Shown: piece after piece, positions 49,565 through 63,770 of the stretch | Position numbering within the stretch: position 1 is the first letter of the stretch | How the letters are laid out: each line of letters begins with the position of its first letter | DNA from: Elusimicrobiota bacterium | Lineage (GTDB): Bacteria > Elusimicrobiota > Elusimicrobia > UBA1565 > UBA9628 | DNA length: 64,000 bases | NCBI GenBank assembly: GCA_023249675.1 | Contig: JAHFCE010000003.1 | Coordinates: forward strand, 111,785 to 175,784 | Reading direction: 5' to 3' | The notes under the pieces: model-generated | Seen by the model: the letters and a program-made list of their open reading frames with translations, nothing else | Told to the model about the DNA's origin: nothing | The model's database searches: none | Translations under genes and position numbers: made by a program

Positions 49565-50623
49565 GTGAAGAAAACGCTTGTCGTCTTAGCGGCGCTTCTC
49601 CTGTGCCCCGCCGTCCAGGCCCGCAAACCAAAAATAAAAACCCTTCTCTCGGCTTTCGAAGCCGCAAAAACCGACGAGCGCATCCGTCTGGCCGCCGCTC
49701 TCGGCCGCAGGAAAAACAAAAAAACCACCGACGCCCTGCTCCTCGCCTTCGACGTCAAGCGCGGCGACCCGCGCGAAAGCGCCGCCTACGTGGACGCCCT
49801 TGGCCAAGCGGGCGATCCGCGCGCCGTCGAGCCGCTTGCCGCCGCTTGGGACTACCTCCGTTCCCTAATCCTTCCGATGGGCGGGCTCCCGGGGCAACTC
49901 CAGGTCCTGAGCGAGAAGATCCTCGACGCCCTGAGCCGTCTCGGCGGCGACCGGGCGGTGCGCGTTCTTTTTGAAGCGCTCGCCGATCCAGACCCGCGCG
50001 TGGCCCAAGAAGCCGTGCGCGGCCTCGGCCGTCTCCGGGTGAAGGACGCCGTCCCGGTTCTCCAGCAGAAGTTGGCGGCGGGCGCTTCGGGCAACCTCCT
50101 CCAGGCGATTTGTGAGGCCCTGGGCGACATCGGCGACAAGCGTGCCCTCTCCACTCTTGAGAAGTCGGCCGCGAATCCAGACACGCTCGTCGCGGCCGAG
50201 GTCTCCTACTCTCTCGTCAAGCTCGGCAAGAAGGAGGACCTGGTTCGCCTGCAGGGTTTCCTGGAGGGCGATTCCGGCGCGGGGGCCGCGGGCCTGCTCG
50301 CGGCCTACTACCTCGTCAAGCTCGATAAGGACGCGGGTCTTGAGTACCTCGAGAAAACGATGAAAAAGCGGGACAGCGCGCTGGCTCCCGTCGCGGCCGA
50401 GACCTTGGGCAAAACCGGCAATCCGCGCGCGGTCCTCGTTCTCATCGAGGTTCTCCAGGCGCCGGATTCCGCCGTGCGCCTCTCGGTGGCGCGCGCTTTG
50501 GGGCGCTTGGGCGGGCCGCGCGCGGTGACGGCCTTAAAGAAGCTGCGCGCCGACCCCGATCCCGGCGTGAGCGGCGCGGCCGTCAACAGCCTGAACGATC
50601 TTGGCGAAATCGACTTGAGATGA
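49565..50623 (+). CDS. Periplasmic HEAT-repeat (PBS-lyase HEAT-like) protein
   Basis: Signal peptide followed by repeated 'D..VR..A..ALG.lgd..A...L' units. Confidence 0.7.
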   Translation: MKKTLVVLAALLLCPAVQARKPKIKTLLSAFEAAKTDERIRLAAALGRRKNKKTTDALLLAFDVKRGDPRESAAYVDALGQAGDPRAVEPLAAAWDYLRSLILPMGGLPGQLQVLSEKILDALSRLGGDRAVRVLFEALADPDPRVAQEAVRGLGRLRVKDAVPVLQQKLAAGASGNLLQAICEALGDIGDKRALSTLEKSAANPDTLVAAEVSYSLVKLGKKEDLVRLQGFLEGDSGAGAAGLLAAYYLVKLDKDAGLEYLEKTMKKRDSALAPVAAETLGKTGNPRAVLVLIEVLQAPDSAVRLSVARALGRLGGPRAVTALKKLRADPDPGVSGAAVNSLNDLGEIDLR

Positions 50624-52824
50624 GCCGAGAGACGCGCATCGGCGACTGTTGGGGCGGCCTGGCTGCGATGCTCGTCGCCCTTCCCCAGGCCTTGGCTTTC
50701 GGCGTGGCGATTTTCGCCCCGCTGGGACCCGAGCGCGCGGCCGAAGGGGCTCTCGCCGGCCTCGTGGGCGCGGCCGCGCTCGGCATGGTGGCCGCCTGGC
50801 TGGGAGGCGCGCCGCGCCTGGTCTCAGCGCCCTGCGCGCCGGCCGCGGCGGTGCTGGGCGGCCTTGCCGCCGTGCTTGCCGCGCGCTATGGGCCTGAGCG
50901 AGCGGCGGCACTTCTGATGCTCACCGGCCTGTTCTCGGCTTTGCTCCAGCTCGCCTACGGCTTAGCGGGGGGAGGTCGCCTCATCAAATTTATTCCCTAC
51001 CCGGTCGTGACCGGCTATCTGAGCGGCGTCGCCGTGCTCATGGCGCTCAGCCAGCTGCCGCGCCTGCTGGCCTTGCCCGCGGGCGCCGGCCTCGCTGCCG
51101 GGCTCGCGTCTCCGTCCTCCTGGAGCGGGCCGGGCTTGATCGTGGGCCTAACGGCGATGTTCGCCATGGTCGTGGCCCCGCGCCTGACCAAGGCCGTTCC
51201 CGCGCCCGTCGTGGGGCTGGCCGCGGGTGTGACCGCGTACTGGGCGGCCAGCCTTGTCCATCCTGAATTGCGCACTGTGTCGGGCAACGCGCTCGTCGTC
51301 GGGCGTCTGCCGGGCGGCATCGCCGGGATGTGGTCGGCGCTGGGTTCGCGCTGGTCGGGCTTGAGCGGTTTTGACGCGGGCATGTTCAAGGCGGCGGCCA
51401 TGCCCGCGGCCACGTTATCGCTTCTTCTCTCCGTCGACACGCTCAAGACCTGCGTGGTCGTCGACACGCTCACGCGCTCGCGCCACGATTCTGATCGCGA
51501 ATTACGCGGCCAGGGCCTGGGCAACCTTGCCGCGGCTTTGCTCGGAGGGGCCGCGGGTGCTGGCACGATGGGGGCCACCCTGGTCAACATCAATGCGGGC
51601 GGGCGCACGCGTCTCTCCGGTGCGCTGGCCGGGGCCTTCACTGTGCTGACCCTTCTGCTGGCCGGCCCGCTCGTCGCCTGGGTGCCGGTGCCGGCGTTGG
51701 CCGGCATCCTGCTCATCGTGGCTTGGCGCATGTTCGACCGGAAAAGCCTTCGTCTTCTGAGACGCCGCTCGACCCAGCTTGATTTCGCCGTGAGCGCCGC
51801 CGTCATCGTCGCCGCCGTCAGCATCGATTTGATCGCCGCCGCGGGAATCGGCATCGGCCTGGCCGCGCTTCTCTTCCTGCGCGACCTCTCGCGCGGCTCC
51901 GTCGTGCGCCGCAAGGTCCGTGGCGACGCCGTGACCTCGCGTCAGCGCCGCCTGCCCGCCGAGCGCGAGGCCCTGCGCGAGTTGGGCTCGGCCGTCGTCC
52001 TCTGCGAGCTGCAGGGAAGCCTCTTTTTCGGCACCACGGACCAGCTGCTCAGCGAGCTCGACGCCGACCTCAAGACCTGCCGCTTCGTCATCCTCGACCT
52101 CAAGCGCGTGCAAAGCGTCGATTTCACCGCCGCGCACATGCTCAAGCAGATCGAGGACCGTCTGCACGAGCGCGGCGGCCGCCTGCTGCTGTGCCAGCTG
52201 CCGCAAAACCTGCCCACCGGCCAGGACCTCGAGTCCTATTTCGCCGAGGTGGGATTGGTCAAGCCCGAGCGCTTTGTCAGCGTTTTTGGCGAGCTCGACG
52301 CCGCCCTCGAGTGGGTCGAAGACCGGCTCCTGTCCGACGCGGGCCTGGCTCCGCCCGTTTCGGCGGCGCCGCTGGGCCTTCAAGACATCGAGCTGTTCCG
52401 CGAGCTCGACGCCGATGAGACGGCCTCCGTGCGCTCCATCCTGCGCGAGCTTTCCGCGCCCGCGGGTTCGGCCGTCTTTCGCCGCGGCGAGGCCGGCGAT
52501 GAGGTTTTTCTCATCCGCAAGGGCCGCGTGCGCATCCTCCTTCCCCTCGAGGGCGGCAAGGAGCATCACAAGGAACACCATGTGGCCACCTTCGGCCGGC
52601 GCGACTTCTTCGGCGAGGTCGCCTTCCTCGACCGGGGCGCTCGCACCGCCGACGCCGTGGCGCTGACCCCCACGGAGCTTTTCGCGCTGTCGCGCGCGCG
52701 CTTCAACGACCTGTCCCGCTCCCACCCCGCCTTGGGCGCCATGCTTTTTGCGCGCTTGTCGCACGCCCTGGCCCTGCGCCTGCGCCAGGCCGATGAGGAG
52801 CTGGGACTGCTCCACGACGCTTAG
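50620..52824 (+). CDS. SulP-family anion transporter with STAS domain and C-terminal cyclic-nucleotide-binding domain
   Basis: The SulP TM core is followed by a STAS domain ('VVLCELQGSLFFGTTDQL') and a cNMP-binding fold ('FRRGEAGDEVFLIRKGRVRI...FGEVAFL'). Confidence 0.8.
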   Translation: MSRETRIGDCWGGLAAMLVALPQALAFGVAIFAPLGPERAAEGALAGLVGAAALGMVAAWLGGAPRLVSAPCAPAAAVLGGLAAVLAARYGPERAAALLMLTGLFSALLQLAYGLAGGGRLIKFIPYPVVTGYLSGVAVLMALSQLPRLLALPAGAGLAAGLASPSSWSGPGLIVGLTAMFAMVVAPRLTKAVPAPVVGLAAGVTAYWAASLVHPELRTVSGNALVVGRLPGGIAGMWSALGSRWSGLSGFDAGMFKAAAMPAATLSLLLSVDTLKTCVVVDTLTRSRHDSDRELRGQGLGNLAAALLGGAAGAGTMGATLVNINAGGRTRLSGALAGAFTVLTLLLAGPLVAWVPVPALAGILLIVAWRMFDRKSLRLLRRRSTQLDFAVSAAVIVAAVSIDLIAAAGIGIGLAALLFLRDLSRGSVVRRKVRGDAVTSRQRRLPAEREALRELGSAVVLCELQGSLFFGTTDQLLSELDADLKTCRFVILDLKRVQSVDFTAAHMLKQIEDRLHERGGRLLLCQLPQNLPTGQDLESYFAEVGLVKPERFVSVFGELDAALEWVEDRLLSDAGLAPPVSAAPLGLQDIELFRELDADETASVRSILRELSAPAGSAVFRRGEAGDEVFLIRKGRVRILLPLEGGKEHHKEHHVATFGRRDFFGEVAFLDRGARTADAVALTPTELFALSRARFNDLSRSHPALGAMLFARLSHALALRLRQADEELGLLHDA

Positions 52825-55119: not shown

Positions 55120-55479
55120 ATGAAAAATATCCGTCTCCTGATGGCGTCAGTGCTGTTCGCTTCACTGGTCATGATCGGCTCGGCCTCCGCCCAGTCGGAC
55201 GCTGATTTCGCCCGGAAGCTCACGGAGGGCATGGGGGCGATGGTGAAAAAGGCGAAGGAACCCGCGACTGTCCAGGGAACGCCCGTCCGTCCCGTCGCAA
55301 AGAGTGTGTCGAGCGGCGATGGGGTCATCTGCGATTGCTATGCGGGGGGGCTCTGGTATGTCTATCTCGGGAACGTCGCCGGAGACACGAAGCAGGACGC
55401 TTTCCGCGAGTGTCGGCGCGTGTCCAAGAAACGGGGCTTCGACGACAACTGCAACATCATCGTCAATAATTGTCAGTGA
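55120..55479 (+). CDS. Small secreted Cys-containing protein
   Basis: Signal peptide, four Cys residues and a GAGG Shine-Dalgarno. It overlaps the next gene by 10 bp. Confidence 0.5.
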   Translation: MKNIRLLMASVLFASLVMIGSASAQSDADFARKLTEGMGAMVKKAKEPATVQGTPVRPVAKSVSSGDGVICDCYAGGLWYVYLGNVAGDTKQDAFRECRRVSKKRGFDDNCNIIVNNCQ

Positions 55480-57206
55480 AACATCGAGCCCCCATTGCCG
55501 GGCTCATCTCGCTGATCCTCGCCTCATCCTCTTTTGCCCAGACCGTGGGCGCCGTTGCGGCGCCAAACTTCCCCGGAGGCGTCCCGGCGCCAGTCATCCC
55601 CGGCGCGCCGGCGCTCGGCGGCGGCTTCTCGATGCCGCTGCCTTCAACATTCGCGCTGACTCCCACGATCACGCCGGCGCTCTCTGTCTCGGGGTCCGCA
55701 GCTCCACGCGCCGCTTCCATCAACCCTTCGATGGCTGCCCCCCGGCGTGCGCGCCGCCTCAAAGAAGACGCGGCAACGGCGGCGGTCAGCAACCCTCGAT
55801 CCGCCCCGCGCGCGCTTCGGACACTGTTCGACGGGAGTTCCGACGCCGACGAAGAATCCCCGGTCGCACCCGGAGTTCCGTTCAATTGGGTTCAGCAGAT
55901 GATCGGACAGTCCGCGGCGTCGAATACGAAACTGCAGGACGCCGTTCGGCGCAAGGGATTCGCGAAAGCGGCGGTCAATTCAGAGGTGCTGAAAAAACAC
56001 AACAACCGCTACACCGTCGAGCTCCCGGTGGGGCCAGTCATGAACCAGGAGGGGACGGAGCAATGCTGGGTCTACGCGGGCCAGAACGTGCTGCGTTCGA
56101 TGCTGATCGCCGCGGGCAAGGTCCCGAAGAATTTTGAGTTTTCTCATACCTACCTGCATTTCTTCAACATGCTCGAAAAAGCGAATCACCAGCTGGAAAC
56201 GGCCGCGGTGCGAATCTATAAACGCGGGAGGAAATCGGAGACCGCGACCAGTCGACGCAAGGCTCTCGTTCCTCGCATGGAGGACAACGGTGAATACGCC
56301 TATTTTGCCTTCCTCGTGTCCAAATACGGCTTGGTTCCGAAGAGCGCGATGAAGAATACGGTTTCCTCCGAGAAAACCGCCCTTTTGAATGAGGAGCTCA
56401 ATGCGCGCCTGGCTCTTGTCGAAGCGGAGATGATGGCCAACGCGCGGCGGCACAAGGCTGGACGCGCGCCTGACCTTGCGATGGAAATCTTGGAGCGCGG
56501 TCGGTCGCGTATCTGGAATATCCTGGCCGCGCATCTCGGCATCCCGCCCACGCAGTTCGCATATCGCCCGAACCCATCAAAGAGACCTCGGACGTTCACC
56601 CCGCGTAAATTCGCCCAAAAGTTCGTGGGGTTCGACCCGAATGACTATGTCTTGGTCGCGAGCTTCCCGGGCAAAAAGACGGGGACGACGTACGAGATCA
56701 AGGATTCGGCCATTGGCGCGTCGTCGCCGGGCCGCCCGCGCTCCAACGTGCGTTTTCTGCAAGTGGCTCTGGAGCGGCTCGAGGTGTTGGCCGTTGCGGC
56801 GATTGCGGGCGGGCAACCGGTCTATTTCGCGGCGGACCACTACAACGACATCCACTTGGAAAGCGGGATCATGCACCCGGAGATTTACAATCGCGCGGCT
56901 CTCTATCAGTCAGCCGATGAGGGACGCTTGTCCCGCGCGGAAGCATTCTATCTCGGACGCCTCCGCACGCGGCATGCAATGGCGTTGACGGGTTTCGACC
57001 GCCCGGATAACGATAAGCCGGTCGTTAAATTCAAGGTGGAGAACTCCTGGGGCGCGGACGTCGGCAGCCGCGGCGTTTTCCACCTCTACCGCGAGTGGTT
57101 CCATCGGAACGTGCTGGAGATACTCGTCCACCGCAGGTTTCTCAGCCGGCCCGAAAGGAAATCCTGGAACAACGCCATTCAGGTGAAGAATCCCGAATTA
57201 GGTTGA
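55470..57206 (+). CDS. Secreted papain-superfamily cysteine peptidase (C1, aminopeptidase C/bleomycin hydrolase-like) with a disordered Pro/Ala-rich N-terminal region
   Basis: 'QEGTEQCWVYAG' carries the catalytic Cys. 'KVENSWGADVG' plus an upstream His form the C-terminal catalytic motif. Confidence 0.7.
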   Translation: MSVKHRAPIAGLISLILASSSFAQTVGAVAAPNFPGGVPAPVIPGAPALGGGFSMPLPSTFALTPTITPALSVSGSAAPRAASINPSMAAPRRARRLKEDAATAAVSNPRSAPRALRTLFDGSSDADEESPVAPGVPFNWVQQMIGQSAASNTKLQDAVRRKGFAKAAVNSEVLKKHNNRYTVELPVGPVMNQEGTEQCWVYAGQNVLRSMLIAAGKVPKNFEFSHTYLHFFNMLEKANHQLETAAVRIYKRGRKSETATSRRKALVPRMEDNGEYAYFAFLVSKYGLVPKSAMKNTVSSEKTALLNEELNARLALVEAEMMANARRHKAGRAPDLAMEILERGRSRIWNILAAHLGIPPTQFAYRPNPSKRPRTFTPRKFAQKFVGFDPNDYVLVASFPGKKTGTTYEIKDSAIGASSPGRPRSNVRFLQVALERLEVLAVAAIAGGQPVYFAADHYNDIHLESGIMHPEIYNRAALYQSADEGRLSRAEAFYLGRLRTRHAMALTGFDRPDNDKPVVKFKVENSWGADVGSRGVFHLYREWFHRNVLEILVHRRFLSRPERKSWNNAIQVKNPELG

Positions 57207-57210
57207 GCGC

Positions 57211-58293
57211 CTACTTAAAAACAGACTTTTCGATCCAGGCGCTTACGTTTGGATTGGTCAGTCGCATAAGCTCTGGTTCGTAAAATGTGTAGGCGACAAA
57301 TTCGGCGAAGGCCTCGCTCGGTCCACCCAGCATCGAGTAGAGGGAGGGGAAGCCGAGCTTTTGGGCATAACCATTGACCCGCTCGTTGATTGAAGTAACG
57401 AACGCGGCTCTTTCTGGACCCTCCGGCATAGTCGCGGCGATCGTAAACTGAGAGTAATACCAGTCTTTCATCTCGCCGAGTTCCTTTGCGTCGACGCCCA
57501 CAAGCGACCACTCCCCGTCGGAACCAAGATTAAATCCTGTCAATTGGAGAAATTCGGGCAAGATGGAGGTATCTGGAAGATCCTGTTCGTCTCCATCGAA
57601 TATATGCGCAAGCTCGTGCAGAAGACCCAGGTCCGCCATATCGTGAGTCATTCCCGTGGTTCTGATGTGCGTACGCTTGCTCATGAAAAGTCGGTCCGTC
57701 ATATTGATGCTCTTGTCAAAGGAGTCATACCATGCAGAATTCATCTTCGCTTGCCACTGCCCTGAGTCCACGTCGAACTCCGCCCTTTGGGTATAGCGGA
57801 AAATAGTCGTATAACCGTTTCTGTTGACTTTTTGGAAGAAGGCGGTGAGCCGTGGATCGTTGACCAAGCCTGAGAACACCGGGCTAAAAAGATCGATTTC
57901 CTGGGGAGTCCACTCCTTGGGACCAGCGATCTGGCAGAACTGAGGTGGGGCCCATGGCGTCGCGCAGGTCCGGCCGGGGGAAAGAGAGAATGTCCCGAAG
58001 GTTGCTTGGACTGGCATGACAGGCGCCGGGATCGAGAGGTCAAAGGCCTTCGCGGACAACATGCGGATGTCATCGGCGCGAACCTGCGCCCGCTCTTTTT
58101 CCCCAGGGCTATCATCGCGCGGGATGTACGGCAGCACGACAGCCGCTGTCCCAGTGGCCGGAGCGATCTCGGCTGGGAGTTCACCTTCCGCCTTCAACTG
58201 CTCCAAAGCGTTTTCTTGGGCCGAGGCGGCAAGTAAAGAGGACCGAGCAATTAAAAGAGCCAACGCGACTGAGATCATGTTCTTCCTCCGCAC
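57211..58293 (-). CDS. Secreted putative zinc metallopeptidase (HEXXH)
   Basis: Signal peptide; 'LLHELAHIFD' is an HExxH motif, and a downstream 'EAFAEF' supplies a candidate third ligand. Confidence 0.5.
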   Translation of the reverse strand: MRRKNMISVALALLIARSSLLAASAQENALEQLKAEGELPAEIAPATGTAAVVLPYIPRDDSPGEKERAQVRADDIRMLSAKAFDLSIPAPVMPVQATFGTFSLSPGRTCATPWAPPQFCQIAGPKEWTPQEIDLFSPVFSGLVNDPRLTAFFQKVNRNGYTTIFRYTQRAEFDVDSGQWQAKMNSAWYDSFDKSINMTDRLFMSKRTHIRTTGMTHDMADLGLLHELAHIFDGDEQDLPDTSILPEFLQLTGFNLGSDGEWSLVGVDAKELGEMKDWYYSQFTIAATMPEGPERAAFVTSINERVNGYAQKLGFPSLYSMLGGPSEAFAEFVAYTFYEPELMRLTNPNVSAWIEKSVFK

Positions 58294-58446
58294 TCTGTAT
58301 TCGGGGGTGCCAAGTTATTGTACGGCAAACCGGGACATCCGCCATGAGTCCTAGGTCCTAGGAGTGGGGCCTCTTTGGACCTGTGCCGTTCGGGGGAATT
58401 AGGACCAAAGGACGCGCCGGCGTCCTTCCCTTGATCTATTCTCGAT

Positions 58447-58478
58447 GATAATGACTCGGTCCAGAACGAGTCATTATC
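58447..58478. other. Perfect 12-bp inverted repeat (hairpin) downstream of brnA
   Basis: GATAATGACTCG-gtccagaa-CGAGTCATTATC. There is no adjacent U-run. Confidence 0.6.
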
Positions 58479-58510
58479 TATCGCCGTAGATCGGATTGCC
58501 GATGAAGTCC

Positions 58511-58786
58511 CTAGCGCGTGATGCGGCGCTCCGGGTCGAGGCGCTCGCGCAGCCACATCTTGATGACCGCTTGTCGGGAGACGTTGAGCTTCACCGCCTC
58601 CTCGTCGAGCTTCTGGACCATCCACTCCGGGAAATCGACGTTGACTCGCTTAACCTTGACCCGCGTAAAGACCGCGCTTTCCATGTCAAGGTAGGGGGTG
58701 ATGTCCTTTCCCGAATCGAACATCCGGTCGAATTCCCTGCCTGTGATCGGCTTAAGAGTCTGTTTTCTTTTTATCCTGGTCTTCAT
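58511..58786 (-). CDS. brnA: BrnA-family (CopG/RHH-like) type II antitoxin
   Basis: 'DFPEWMVQKLDEEAVKLNVSRQAVIKMWL' matches the BrnA C-terminal RHH motif. Confidence 0.75.
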   Translation of the reverse strand: MKTRIKRKQTLKPITGREFDRMFDSGKDITPYLDMESAVFTRVKVKRVNVDFPEWMVQKLDEEAVKLNVSRQAVIKMWLRERLDPERRITR

Positions 58787-58825
58787 CGATTCTCTCCAAC
58801 CGTCTGTCCGCCCGGTGGCAGCTGA

Positions 58826-58930
58826 TTAAGCGTACGACCGCGCCTCCCAGAGCGCCTGCGCCTCCTCGAAATCAACCCCGTGCCGTTCCCAATTGAGACG
58901 GCTTTTCCTGGGGTCGAACTCGAACAACAC
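58826..58930 (-). pseudogene. brnT: Truncated BrnT (DUF497) toxin remnant, 34 codons then TAA
   Basis: The minus-strand translation 'VLFEFDPRKSRLNWERHGVDFEEAQALWEARSYA*' matches the BrnT N-terminus. It is in frame with brnA and sits directly upstream of it. Confidence 0.6.
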
Positions 58931-59049
58931 CGGCTTTTTAAAGTATAACAGTTATACCTCCTCGGTGCCAGGGCGAACTGCATCATTCTCCATGTCTTTA
59001 TACGATCGACCCCCGCCGAAAGTTCCATCAAAAGCGGTATCCTAGACGA

Positions 59050-60837
59050 ATGATCCTGCTCCTTCTCTCCGTCTTCCTCTCGGTTCCCAGCCTCGCCGCC
59101 GCTCCGACCGCCAAGGATGCCGCCACCTTCATGACTCGCGCCGAGGCCTCCCTTGACGAACTCGGTCGCCGCTCGAGCTTCTCCTCCTGGGCCCAGCAGA
59201 CCGACATCAACTACACCACCGAGTGGCTCGCCTCCGACGCCGACCGCGCCTTCGCCGCCGAGGCCGCCAAGCTCGCTCACGAGGCGCGCCGATTCGACCG
59301 CCTTCAGCTTCCGGCCGACCTCAAGCGCAAGTTCCTGCTCCTCAAGCTTGCGGTGGACTCTCCCTCCCCGCCCGACCTGAAAGAACAAAAAGAGCTGTCC
59401 GACGCCAAGGTCTGGCTCGAAGGGACCTACGGCAAGGGCAAGTATTGCCCGACTCCCGACAAGTGCCTGACCTTGGACGACATGGAGGACGTCCTCAAGG
59501 AGTCCCGCGACCCGAAGACGCTCCTCGACCTCTGGACCGGCTGGCGCAAAATTTCCGTTCCCATGCGCCCGCGCTACCGGCGCTTCGTTGAGCTCTCCAA
59601 CAAGGGCGCGCGGGACCTTGGTTTCAAAGACACCGCCGACCTGTGGCGCTCCGGCTACGACATGACGCCTGAGGCGTTCTCCGCCGAGCTCGACCGGCAG
59701 TGGCTGCAGATCAAGCCGTTGTATGAGGCTCTCCACGCCTACGTGCGCCGGCGCTTGACCGAGAAGTACGGCAGCGATGTCGTGGGCCCCGACGGCCTCA
59801 TTCCTGCGCATCTTCTTGGCAACATGTGGGGGCAATCCTGGGAGAACATTTACGATCTCGTCGCTCCCCCCAAGAGCAAACCCGCCTTCGACCTCACTGA
59901 GCGCCTGAAGGCCGCCAAGCTCGACGAGAAAACCATGGTGCAGTATGGCGAGAGGTTCTTCACCTCGATGGGCTTCGATCCCTTGCCCGCGACTTTTTGG
60001 GAACGCTCCATGCTGACGCGGCCCCGCGACCGCGAGGTCGTCTGCCACGCTTCGGCCTGGGACGTCGAAAGCGGCCAGGACCTGCGCATCAAGATGTGCA
60101 TCAAGATCAATGCCGAGGATTTCGTCACCATCCACCACGAGCTCGGCCACAATTTTTATCAGCGCGCGTATGAAAAGCAGCCGTACTTCTTCCGCGGCTC
60201 CGCCAACGACGGCTTCCACGAGGCACTGGGCGACACCATCGCGCTCGCGGTGACGCCGGAGTACCTGAAGGAGGTCGGGCTCATTGACTCTGTTCCCGGC
60301 CCGGAGGGGGACATCGACCTTCTCTTGAAGATGGCGCTTGAGCGGGTGGCGTTCCATCCCTTCGGCCTCCTGGTCGATCAGTGGCGCTGGGGCGTGTTTT
60401 CCGGCGCTATCGCGCCGGAAAACTACAACGACGCCTGGTGGGCCCTTGTTAAGAAGTATCAGGGCTTGAAGCCGCCGGTCGCCCGCACCGAGGCCGACTT
60501 CGACCCGGGCGCCAAGTACCACATCCCGGGCAACACCCCGTACGCGCGCTACTTCCTAGCACAGCTCTACCAGTTCCAGTTCTACCGCGCTTTGTGCCGG
60601 CAGCATGGGCACACCGGCCCGCTGCACCGCTGCTCGTTCTACGGGGACAAAGCCGCCGGCAAGCGCTTGGGCGACATGATGGCGATGGGCTCGAGCCGCC
60701 CGTGGCCCGACGCGCTTGAGGCCGCGACGGGCCAGCGCCGGATGGACGCGACGGCGATCCTGGAGTACTTCGCGCCGCTCAAGGCCTGGCTCGACGAGCA
60801 GAACAAGGGGCAAAGTGTTGGCTGGAAGGCGGACTGA
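59050..60837 (+). CDS. M2-family peptidyl-dipeptidase (angiotensin-converting-enzyme-like) with signal peptide
   Basis: 'HHELGHNFYQ' with a downstream 'HEALGD' matches the ACE motifs HHEMGH...EAIGD. Confidence 0.8.
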   Translation: MILLLLSVFLSVPSLAAAPTAKDAATFMTRAEASLDELGRRSSFSSWAQQTDINYTTEWLASDADRAFAAEAAKLAHEARRFDRLQLPADLKRKFLLLKLAVDSPSPPDLKEQKELSDAKVWLEGTYGKGKYCPTPDKCLTLDDMEDVLKESRDPKTLLDLWTGWRKISVPMRPRYRRFVELSNKGARDLGFKDTADLWRSGYDMTPEAFSAELDRQWLQIKPLYEALHAYVRRRLTEKYGSDVVGPDGLIPAHLLGNMWGQSWENIYDLVAPPKSKPAFDLTERLKAAKLDEKTMVQYGERFFTSMGFDPLPATFWERSMLTRPRDREVVCHASAWDVESGQDLRIKMCIKINAEDFVTIHHELGHNFYQRAYEKQPYFFRGSANDGFHEALGDTIALAVTPEYLKEVGLIDSVPGPEGDIDLLLKMALERVAFHPFGLLVDQWRWGVFSGAIAPENYNDAWWALVKKYQGLKPPVARTEADFDPGAKYHIPGNTPYARYFLAQLYQFQFYRALCRQHGHTGPLHRCSFYGDKAAGKRLGDMMAMGSSRPWPDALEAATGQRRMDATAILEYFAPLKAWLDEQNKGQSVGWKAD

Positions 60838-63154: not shown

Positions 63155-63241
63155 GGAGAGGTGGCCGAGCGGTTTAAGGCACCAGTCTTGAAAACTGGCG
63201 ACGTGTAACAGCGTCCGTGGGTTCGAATCCCACCCTCTCCG
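63155..63241 (+). tRNA. tRNA-Ser (anticodon UGA)
   Basis: Acceptor stem GGAGAGG/CCTCTCC, D-loop 'GCCGAGCGGTTTAAGGC', anticodon loop 'CTTGAAA', long variable arm and T-loop 'GGTTCGAATCC'. No encoded CCA. Confidence 0.85.
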
Positions 63242-63284
63242 AAGTTTTTAGGGAACAAAATCGGGGTCTCGATCGTCTGGTAGT

Positions 63285-63770
63285 ATGGAGATCTCGAAGA
63301 TCGATGGATTGATTCACGTTCTGCGGGGCCAGCGGGTCATGCTCGATGTTGACCTGGCTGAGCTTTATGGCGTCGAAGTCCGCCAGCTCAAGCGGCAGGT
63401 TCGCCGTAATAAGGAGCGTTTCCCTGAGGATTTTTTATTTACGCTCACCGCGCGGGAGTATGAAATCTTAAGGTGCCAAATTGGCACCTTAAGTTGGGGG
63501 CGACATTCGAAGTATCTTCCCTTTGCTTTCACCGAGCACGGTGTCGCCATGCTGTCGAGCGTTCTAAACAGTCCGCGGGCGATCTCGGCCAATATTGAGA
63601 TCATGCGGGCGTTCACGCGACTGCGCGGCATTCTCGCGGAACAGCGTCAGCTGATCGCTCGTCTTAACGAGCTTGAGGGCCGCTATGACGCGCAGTTTAA
63701 GGATGTGTTTGCTGCGATACGGCAGCTGATGGAGCCGCCGGTTGCCCCAAAGAAGAAGATCGGGTTTTAG
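63285..63770 (+). CDS. ORF6N-domain protein (phage/antirepressor-associated)
   Basis: 'IHVLRGQRVMLDVDLAELYGVEVRQLKRQVRRNKERFPEDFLFTLT' is the ORF6N signature. Confidence 0.7.
   Translation: MEISKIDGLIHVLRGQRVMLDVDLAELYGVEVRQLKRQVRRNKERFPEDFLFTLTAREYEILRCQIGTLSWGRHSKYLPFAFTEHGVAMLSSVLNSPRAISANIEIMRAFTRLRGILAEQRQLIARLNELEGRYDAQFKDVFAAIRQLMEPPVAPKKKIGF

Follow-up and report, generated by a model that had tools for sequence, protein, structure and literature searches.

Loss of the toxin gene through an internal deletion in a brnTA module of an uncultured Elusimicrobiota bacterium

BrnT is a RelE-like ribonuclease of the DUF497 family, and brnTA is a type II toxin–antitoxin (TA) module. In the window analysed here, the whole 64-kb stretch (64,000 nucleotides) from an uncultured member of the Elusimicrobiota, an intact brnA gene is preceded by only parts of a brnT gene. 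The locus raises the question of how the toxin gene was lost, and whether the antitoxin gene left behind is a remnant that has yet to decay or has been kept for a role of its own. The initial annotation had read the pair as an instance of TA-module decay, and HMM matches together with DNA alignment to intact relatives bear this out.

The remains of brnT and a 106-bp deletion

On the minus strand, an open reading frame of 34 codons extends from a GTG to a TAA (58826–58930; translation MLFEFDPRKSRLNWERHGVDFEEAQALWEARSYA*). The HMM comparison that had been proposed as a check aligned this peptide with profile positions 1–27 of 77 of the Pfam family BrnT_toxin (PF04365) with E = 2e-6. The score of 28.4 bits lies below the gathering score of 34.5 because the 34-residue peptide is only a fragment. 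Searching the window by tblastn with intact BrnT proteins of relatives gave E-values of 1e-15 to 7e-22 and revealed two separate remnants. The 5′ remnant (58844–58930, minus strand) comprises the GTG start and codons 1–29, as delimited by the PF04365 match, by the tblastn alignment of residues 1–28/29 in frame −1 and by DNA alignment. The 3′ remnant (58752–58838, minus strand; VVRLISCHRADRRLERIDEDQDKKKTDS*) consists of the last 28 codons, 67–94, plus the stop codon. It lies in another frame (−3 in tblastn), and its residues 67–94 (58838–58755) are 79–93% identical to the intact toxins of relatives. Residues ~30–66 are missing from the locus. The initial annotation had recognized an N-terminal fragment only, which is correct for the 34-codon reading frame but leaves out the 3′ end of the gene.

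A Pfam score below the gathering threshold might be taken to mean that the BrnT-like stretch is a chance similarity within a short reading frame unrelated to toxins. The probability of this is negligible in our view, given the E-value of the match over just 27 residues, a nucleotide identity of 80–90% to intact brnT genes at both ends, and the same position relative to brnA behind the same operator.

Intact brnTA modules, which the initial annotation had suggested looking for in relatives, served as reference. The comparison set comprised the five nearest loci (L004–L008), with BrnA proteins 80–91% identical to that of the window. In four of them, brnT encodes a protein of 94 residues; the start of the gene lies 250 nt ahead of that of brnA, and the two genes share 35 nt. 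At the fifth and closest locus (L006, BrnA 91% identical) the contig begins inside brnT, and the frame is open across the critical region. The DNA of the window is collinear with all five apart from a single clean gap of 106 bp. DNA alignments and the family alignment place the deletion junction at 58843–58847 (minus strand), with an ambiguity of about 4 nt due to a GAGG/GGG microhomology. The 3′ remnant overlaps the start of brnA by 35 nt, as at the intact loci. The alignment to five loci, the conserved overlap and the retention of both gene ends demonstrate descent from a toxin-first brnT–brnA operon.

The TAA that closes the 34-codon frame (58826–58828, minus strand) came to be read only through the frameshift. 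In the frame of the intact gene its bases belong to CGC TTA ATC (R L I), and relatives have a TGA at the same out-of-frame place. The toxin gene was thus killed by a 106-bp internal deletion with a frameshift, and not by a nonsense mutation. The TAA does end the BrnT fragment after about 34 residues, as had been noted, but the explanation first considered, a genuine nonsense mutation, has to be replaced. With 106 bp gone, the toxin is beyond repair by any single-base change, which disposes of the possibility, raised at the outset, that a single-base error conceals a full-length gene. The observation that the frame of the remnant continues into brnA is correct: the distance from 58930 to 58786 is 144 nt, or 48 codons. 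A BrnT(1–34)–BrnA fusion or read-through product is ruled out by the intervening TAA, and the shared frame is a matter of arithmetic (250 − 106 = 144).

The window derives from a metagenome-assembled genome (MAG), and simple frameshifts at some of the other loci surveyed below could be sequencing errors. It could be argued, then, that the interruption is an error of sequencing or assembly, or a nonsense mutation at a single position, and that the real brnT is full-length or trivially restorable. A gap of 106 bp relative to relatives is neither a base change nor a homopolymer slip. Moreover, the same BrnA protein is encoded on three short contigs of other assemblies from different runs (SRR14366766 from Logan, and ERZ27279563 and ERZ27276474 from ENA). 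All three are 100% identical to the window over 580 bp that include promoter, remnant, junction and brnA, and each also carries the 5′ part of the adjoining M2 peptidase gene. Since the gap is reproduced in separate assemblies, it is not a sequencing or assembly error, and we consider an artefact extremely improbable. Both this reading and that of a chance match are effectively refuted. An exact 24-mer specific for the window allele, used to seek an intact allele of the same lineage, had 0 matches in JGI metagenome contigs.

The toxin gene is dead. According to the review PMC5086665, Asp6, Glu7, Lys9, Arg41 and Glu78 of Brucella BrnT are important for RNase activity. Judged by position, the deletion would have removed most of the β-sheet core, from which the loss of activity is predicted; the equivalent of Arg41 would fall within the deleted segment and that of Glu78 within the out-of-frame 3′ remnant. 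The locus resembles Brucella BrnTA in its composition and gene order, with a DUF497/PF04365 toxin encoded ahead of a ribbon-helix-helix, CopG-type antitoxin of the BrnA family. Unlike the Brucella module, it is not a functional TA pair, the toxin lacking residues ~30–66 and being frameshifted, and its host is an uncultured member of the Elusimicrobiota. As the locus has no full-length DUF497/PF04365 reading frame, residues ~30–66 being gone and 67–94 out of frame, the appropriate annotation is a brnT pseudogene with an orphan brnA antitoxin gene, instead of a functional BrnTA system.

The antitoxin gene and its expression signals

The brnA gene (58511–58786, minus strand) is intact. It begins with an ATG at 58786, 39 nt past the stop of the remnant, ends at 58511 and encodes a ribbon-helix-helix antitoxin of 91 residues. 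The protein matches the NCBIfam equivalog NF047399 (BrnA_antitoxin_add) over profile positions 2–70 of 70 with E = 1.8e-30 and 104.9 bits (cut-off 60), and more weakly the Pfam family CopG_antitoxin (E = 5e-6). Full-length homologues exist: a protein search returned 124, the closest from Elusimicrobiota MAGs. Among GTDB species representatives, a set from which the genome of the window is absent, the best match was 66% identical. A phmmer search of PDB sequences gave no match for BrnA, and only 7vd7_A (E = 1.7e-4) for the BrnT proteins of relatives. For a second copy of either gene, the 64-kb window was searched by tblastn; the queries, four intact BrnT and six BrnA sequences, gave nothing with E < 0.05 beyond the locus itself. 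The antitoxin gene is therefore complete and has no functional cognate toxin gene in cis.

Upstream of the remnant, a consensus scan found a σ70-like site at 58971–58942 (minus strand), which consists of CTGGCA, an 18-nt spacer and TG-TATACT and agrees with the consensus at 9 of 12 positions; the scan yielded three sites where 0.3 were expected. The hexamer CTGGCA (58966–58971, minus strand) would be the −35 element of a brnTA promoter, and the CCTGGC of this region is conserved in relatives. The promoter-like site overlaps an 18-mer, GGTATAACTGTTATACTT (58941–58958, minus strand), which contains the perfect palindrome GTATAAC-T-GTTATAC (58943–58957) as well as the −10-like TATACT (58942–58947) and is presumed to be the BrnA operator. 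It is identical in every relative for which upstream sequence is available. Only 11 nt separate the −10 element from the GTG of brnT, which suggests a nearly leaderless brnT message.

The overlap of a 7-1-7 palindrome with a −10-like hexamer is widely conserved. As stated in the review PMC5086665, which cites Heaton 2012 on this point, Brucella BrnT and BrnA associate in a 2:2 complex, which binds to the promoter of the module and represses it. The palindrome-bearing promoter of the window is consistent with such autoregulation, which we predict for this locus as well. The 18-mer also occurs in identical form upstream of brnT genes from two distinct DUF497 subfamilies. We regard it as a strong candidate for a conserved BrnA operator.

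A Shine–Dalgarno-like GGAGAG (58792–58797, minus strand), located 5 nt from the ATG of brnA and conserved in relatives, is the probable ribosome-binding site. Downstream of brnA, a structured region (58408–58478, minus strand) presumably marks the end of the transcript. It contains a hairpin with 15-bp arms (58447–58478) and a GC hairpin, AAGGACGC/GCGTCCTT (58408–58427), followed by TTTGG, and the predicted RNA fold of 58395–58515 has −48.7 kcal/mol (z = −4.65). Conservation with the nearest relative, L006, extends up to about 58411. In that relative the long hairpin lies at ~475–505 with its stem preserved and a different loop (TTCTGGAC versus the GTCCAGAA region), so the hairpin belongs to the cassette and not to its flank. 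A scan for strict intrinsic terminators downstream of brnA detected none, only hairpins without a long T-run. Rfam returned nothing credible on 58250–59100, the one match being sub-threshold at 20 bits.

The deletion has left the promoter-like site, the palindrome, the ribosome-binding site and reading frame of brnA and the 3′ hairpins untouched. Everything needed to produce BrnA alone thus appears intact, from which expression and DNA binding of the protein are to be expected.

Residence of the module and age of the deletion

The brnTA locus is oriented divergently from a gene for an M2 (ACE-like) peptidase (59050–60837, plus strand; Pfam E = 5e-223). The assembly GCA_030696455.1 (L004) carries an intact brnTA, likewise divergent from the orthologous peptidase gene, with a truncated ORF6N gene of 121 codons between peptidase and brnT. 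The proteins of the two loci have similar identities, 81% for the M2 peptidase and 80% for BrnA. Synteny and similar identities indicate that the module has long been resident at this locus; its vertical inheritance would give the pattern observed. Closely related cassettes are also found in unrelated contexts and therefore appear to move as well. One relative (L005) has its cassette in a cluster of other TA-like pairs, and in L006 the similarity to the window extends no further than ~110 nt past brnA.

For brnA codons 13–91, dN/dS values according to Nei–Gojobori are 0.13–0.23 between the window and its relatives, indistinguishable from the 0.10–0.23 found between pairs of intact modules. The nearest relative is already at a dS of 0.43, so almost all of the divergence of brnA may predate the deletion. 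More informative are the remnants of brnT. The 5′ remnant shows dN/dS values of 0.06–0.34, and the 3′ remnant has 3–6 synonymous against 1–2 non-synonymous differences. A long-dead pseudogene drifts towards a dN/dS of 1. As dN is still far below dS in both remnants, the deletion must be recent relative to the split from the known relatives. Given this and the dS of the nearest relative, the signal of selection on brnA stems mostly from the time before the deletion, and the intactness of the gene is uninformative on selection for an orphan role.

The most convincing explanation, to which we assign a probability of about 0.88, is that a long-resident chromosomal brnTA module recently lost its toxin through a microhomology-flanked 106-bp deletion, leaving behind a brnA that is probably autoregulated and still expressed but now purposeless. 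The ancestor would have resembled L004–L008, with a 94-residue BrnT encoded first and a 91-residue BrnA starting 35 nt inside the 3′ end of its gene. By analogy with Brucella BrnTA, the BrnT–BrnA complex would have repressed its own promoter at GTATAAC-T-GTTATAC over the −10 element. A deletion at 3–4 nt of flanking microhomology would then have removed BrnT residues ~30–66 and shifted the frame, so that translation from the GTG would end after 34 codons. BrnA is probably still made and probably still represses its own promoter.

Loss of the antitoxin first would be lethal. Loss of the toxin first is therefore the only decay route permitted, and a state with dead toxin and intact antitoxin is the expected transient intermediate. 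Since the remnants still resemble coding sequence under selection and the event is young, brnA is most likely a leftover that has not yet decayed, and not a gene kept for some new function. Taken alone, the locus matters little, as it represents a textbook intermediate of TA-module decay. The phenomenon is well known, and what is new is an instance in an uncultured phylum, with the value added by a reconstructed lesion, a frequency estimate and a candidate operator sequence.

Several further features were noted around the locus. Upstream of the brnT promoter, a stretch of ~50 nt (58973–59030, minus strand; ACTTTCGGCGGGGGTCGATCGTATAAAGACATGGAGAA) shows homology to ORF6N genes in their leader and start codon, as seen by comparison with 2345–2420 of L004 and with 63242–63310 of the window. 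The same leader remnant precedes brnT in L005 and L163, and L007 is consistent over the part covered. This suggests that the cassette once had the order ORF6N–brnT–brnA or was inserted into an ORF6N gene. Upstream of and inside its truncated ORF6N gene (2205–2360 and 2583–2603), L004 has a series of similar ..CAAATTG.. palindromes, e.g. AAGTCGCAAATTGCGACTT, GAGGTCACAAATTGTGACCTC, AAGGTTGCAAATTGCAACCTT and AAGGTGCCAAATTGGCACCTT. Elsewhere in the window, a tRNA-Ser(UGA) gene (63155–63241, plus strand) is followed after 44 nt by a gene for a 161-residue ORF6N-domain protein (63285–63770, plus strand), which matches the PADLOC candidate defence family PDC-S05 with E = 1.6e-51; this could be the border of an integrated element that extends beyond the window. 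On the other side of brnA, a neighbouring gene (57211–58293, minus strand) encodes a 360-residue protein that starts like a signal peptide and has no Pfam match, and PADLOC returned no defence-system match for this protein, BrnA or BrnT. It is preceded in the window by a gene for a C1-like aminopeptidase with an N-terminal extension of ~150 residues (55470–57206, plus strand). A reading frame of 734 codons (50620–52824, plus strand) combines SulP sulfate-permease, STAS and cyclic-nucleotide-binding domains.

Toxin-dead loci elsewhere and the fate of brnA

Two surveys addressed the frequency of loci with dead toxin and intact antitoxin. In survey A, the regions upstream of 80 BrnA loci from GTDB species-representative genomes were scanned with a BrnT HMM that was derived from the intact relatives and refined in one iteration; 77 loci were assessable. 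An intact brnT was present at 51 of these and a fragmentary one (incomplete, interrupted by stops or frameshifts, or with an internal deletion) at 17, and nine had no brnT upstream. BrnA is a complete reading frame at 25 of the 26 toxin-dead loci. No BrnT match was found within 2.5 kb on either side at eight of the nine loci without brnT, which shows that solo BrnA can persist for long in some lineages. Three of the seven loci from Elusimicrobia (L009, L012 and L014) have toxins truncated in different ways.

In survey B, metagenome contigs were scanned for GGTATAACTGTTATACTT, and 120 loci were returned (L089–L208). At 59 of them, brnT and/or brnA lies directly downstream, and the matches include the second, more distant DUF497 subfamily. 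Where both the 18-mer and BrnA are present (51 loci), brnT is intact in 41 cases and not intact in ten. One locus (L163, Ga0315281_10243717) has an in-frame deletion of 81 bp, resulting in a BrnT of 68 residues without HMM positions 39–64. Large 5′ deletions have removed ~183 bp of brnT in L196 and ~190 bp in L174. In L176, brnA starts 8 nt after the 18-mer and brnT is entirely absent. Stop codons or frameshifts break brnT in L130, L136, L144, L160, L171 and L208. A brnT without brnA was seen only where the contig ends; as both surveys started from an intact BrnA or from the operator, they provide no independent measure of the frequency of antitoxin loss.

Toxin-first decay is thus recurrent and ordinary, and has occurred by many independent lesions. 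This agrees with the lethality of losing the antitoxin first and with surveys of orphan antitoxins (PMC7192599). As a rough frequency, about 20–34% of BrnA loci are without an intact upstream BrnT, a range that may include frameshifts due to errors of MAGs or long reads and that leaves out loci with both genes decayed, these being invisible to either survey. It may be of use to TA specialists. Orphan antitoxins are abundant in Klebsiella (PMC7192599), and the degraded TA loci of the Klebsiella pneumoniae complex resemble the window in that an intact antitoxin gene remains in its original context beside a disrupted toxin gene. They have also been given the same competing readings, a degrading pair or anti-addiction (PMC7192599). 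They differ in TA family and phylum, and for the window, comparison with intact relatives reveals the exact lesion and how recent it is.

The second of these readings had also been proposed in the initial annotation. Selection would have kept the orphan BrnA as anti-addiction or immunity protection against BrnT arriving with mobile elements that carry related cassettes or, going beyond that proposal, as a transcriptional regulator in its own right. The idea has been discussed for orphan antitoxins (PMC7192599). It is plausible in principle. Promoter, operator, ribosome-binding site and reading frame are all intact, closely related cassettes occur in different contexts and are apparently mobile, and many cassettes share the 18-mer operator, so that a resident BrnA could repress or neutralize incomers. 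Independent deletions in L163, L196, L174 and L176 have likewise kept operator and brnA, and solo BrnA genes without a trace of brnT exist.

At this locus, the reading finds no specific support. With a deletion so young that brnA has had too little time to decay, an intact gene carries no information on selection, and its dN/dS, the same as in intact modules, mostly reflects history before the deletion. Surveys that start from an intact BrnA or operator cannot count doubly decayed loci, and no second BrnT for BrnA to counteract was found in the 64-kb window, although a further brnT elsewhere in the genome might be served by it. Selective retention of brnA is therefore unlikely, and we prefer to regard the gene as a leftover.

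Chromosomal TA genes reportedly can act in this way: Saavedra De Bast et al. are said to have shown experimentally in 2008 that the chromosomal ccd of Erwinia chrysanthemi protects against the ccd of the F plasmid. The likeness is conceptual, in that a chromosomal antitoxin could neutralize a related incoming toxin. The Erwinia system is a complete TA pair, unlike the orphan BrnA of the window.

The pattern of lesions invites a broader and rather doubtful proposal. The deletions in the window, L163, L196, L174 and L176 all remove brnT sequence and spare the 18-mer with the promoter as well as brnA, and those in the window, L163 and L196 also spare the 50–70 nt that carry the translation signals of brnA. 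Repeated loss of the toxin might then be more than neutral decay, with a domesticated BrnA providing immunity against incoming cassettes that have the identical operator, or repressing them. If true, this would amount to a population-level anti-addiction system in Elusimicrobiota. The candidate operator GTATAAC-N-GTTATAC, identical across two BrnT subfamilies in many metagenomes, is directly testable.

A deletion hot spot was also considered, as a stretch of ~20 nt contains the right-hand breakpoints of all three deletions in the window, L163 and L196. It was rejected: the comparison is post hoc with P roughly 0.01–0.03, and the toxin fragments of the GTDB survey start anywhere from HMM position 36 to 64. 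Two of the metagenomic loci deserve separate mention. The frameshift in L208 joins BrnT(1–67) in frame to BrnA. L175 has an otherwise intact brnT in which GTA replaces the GTG start of the family (CCGGTACGATTC); this may be a case of start-codon loss that was scored as intact in the HMM-based tally.
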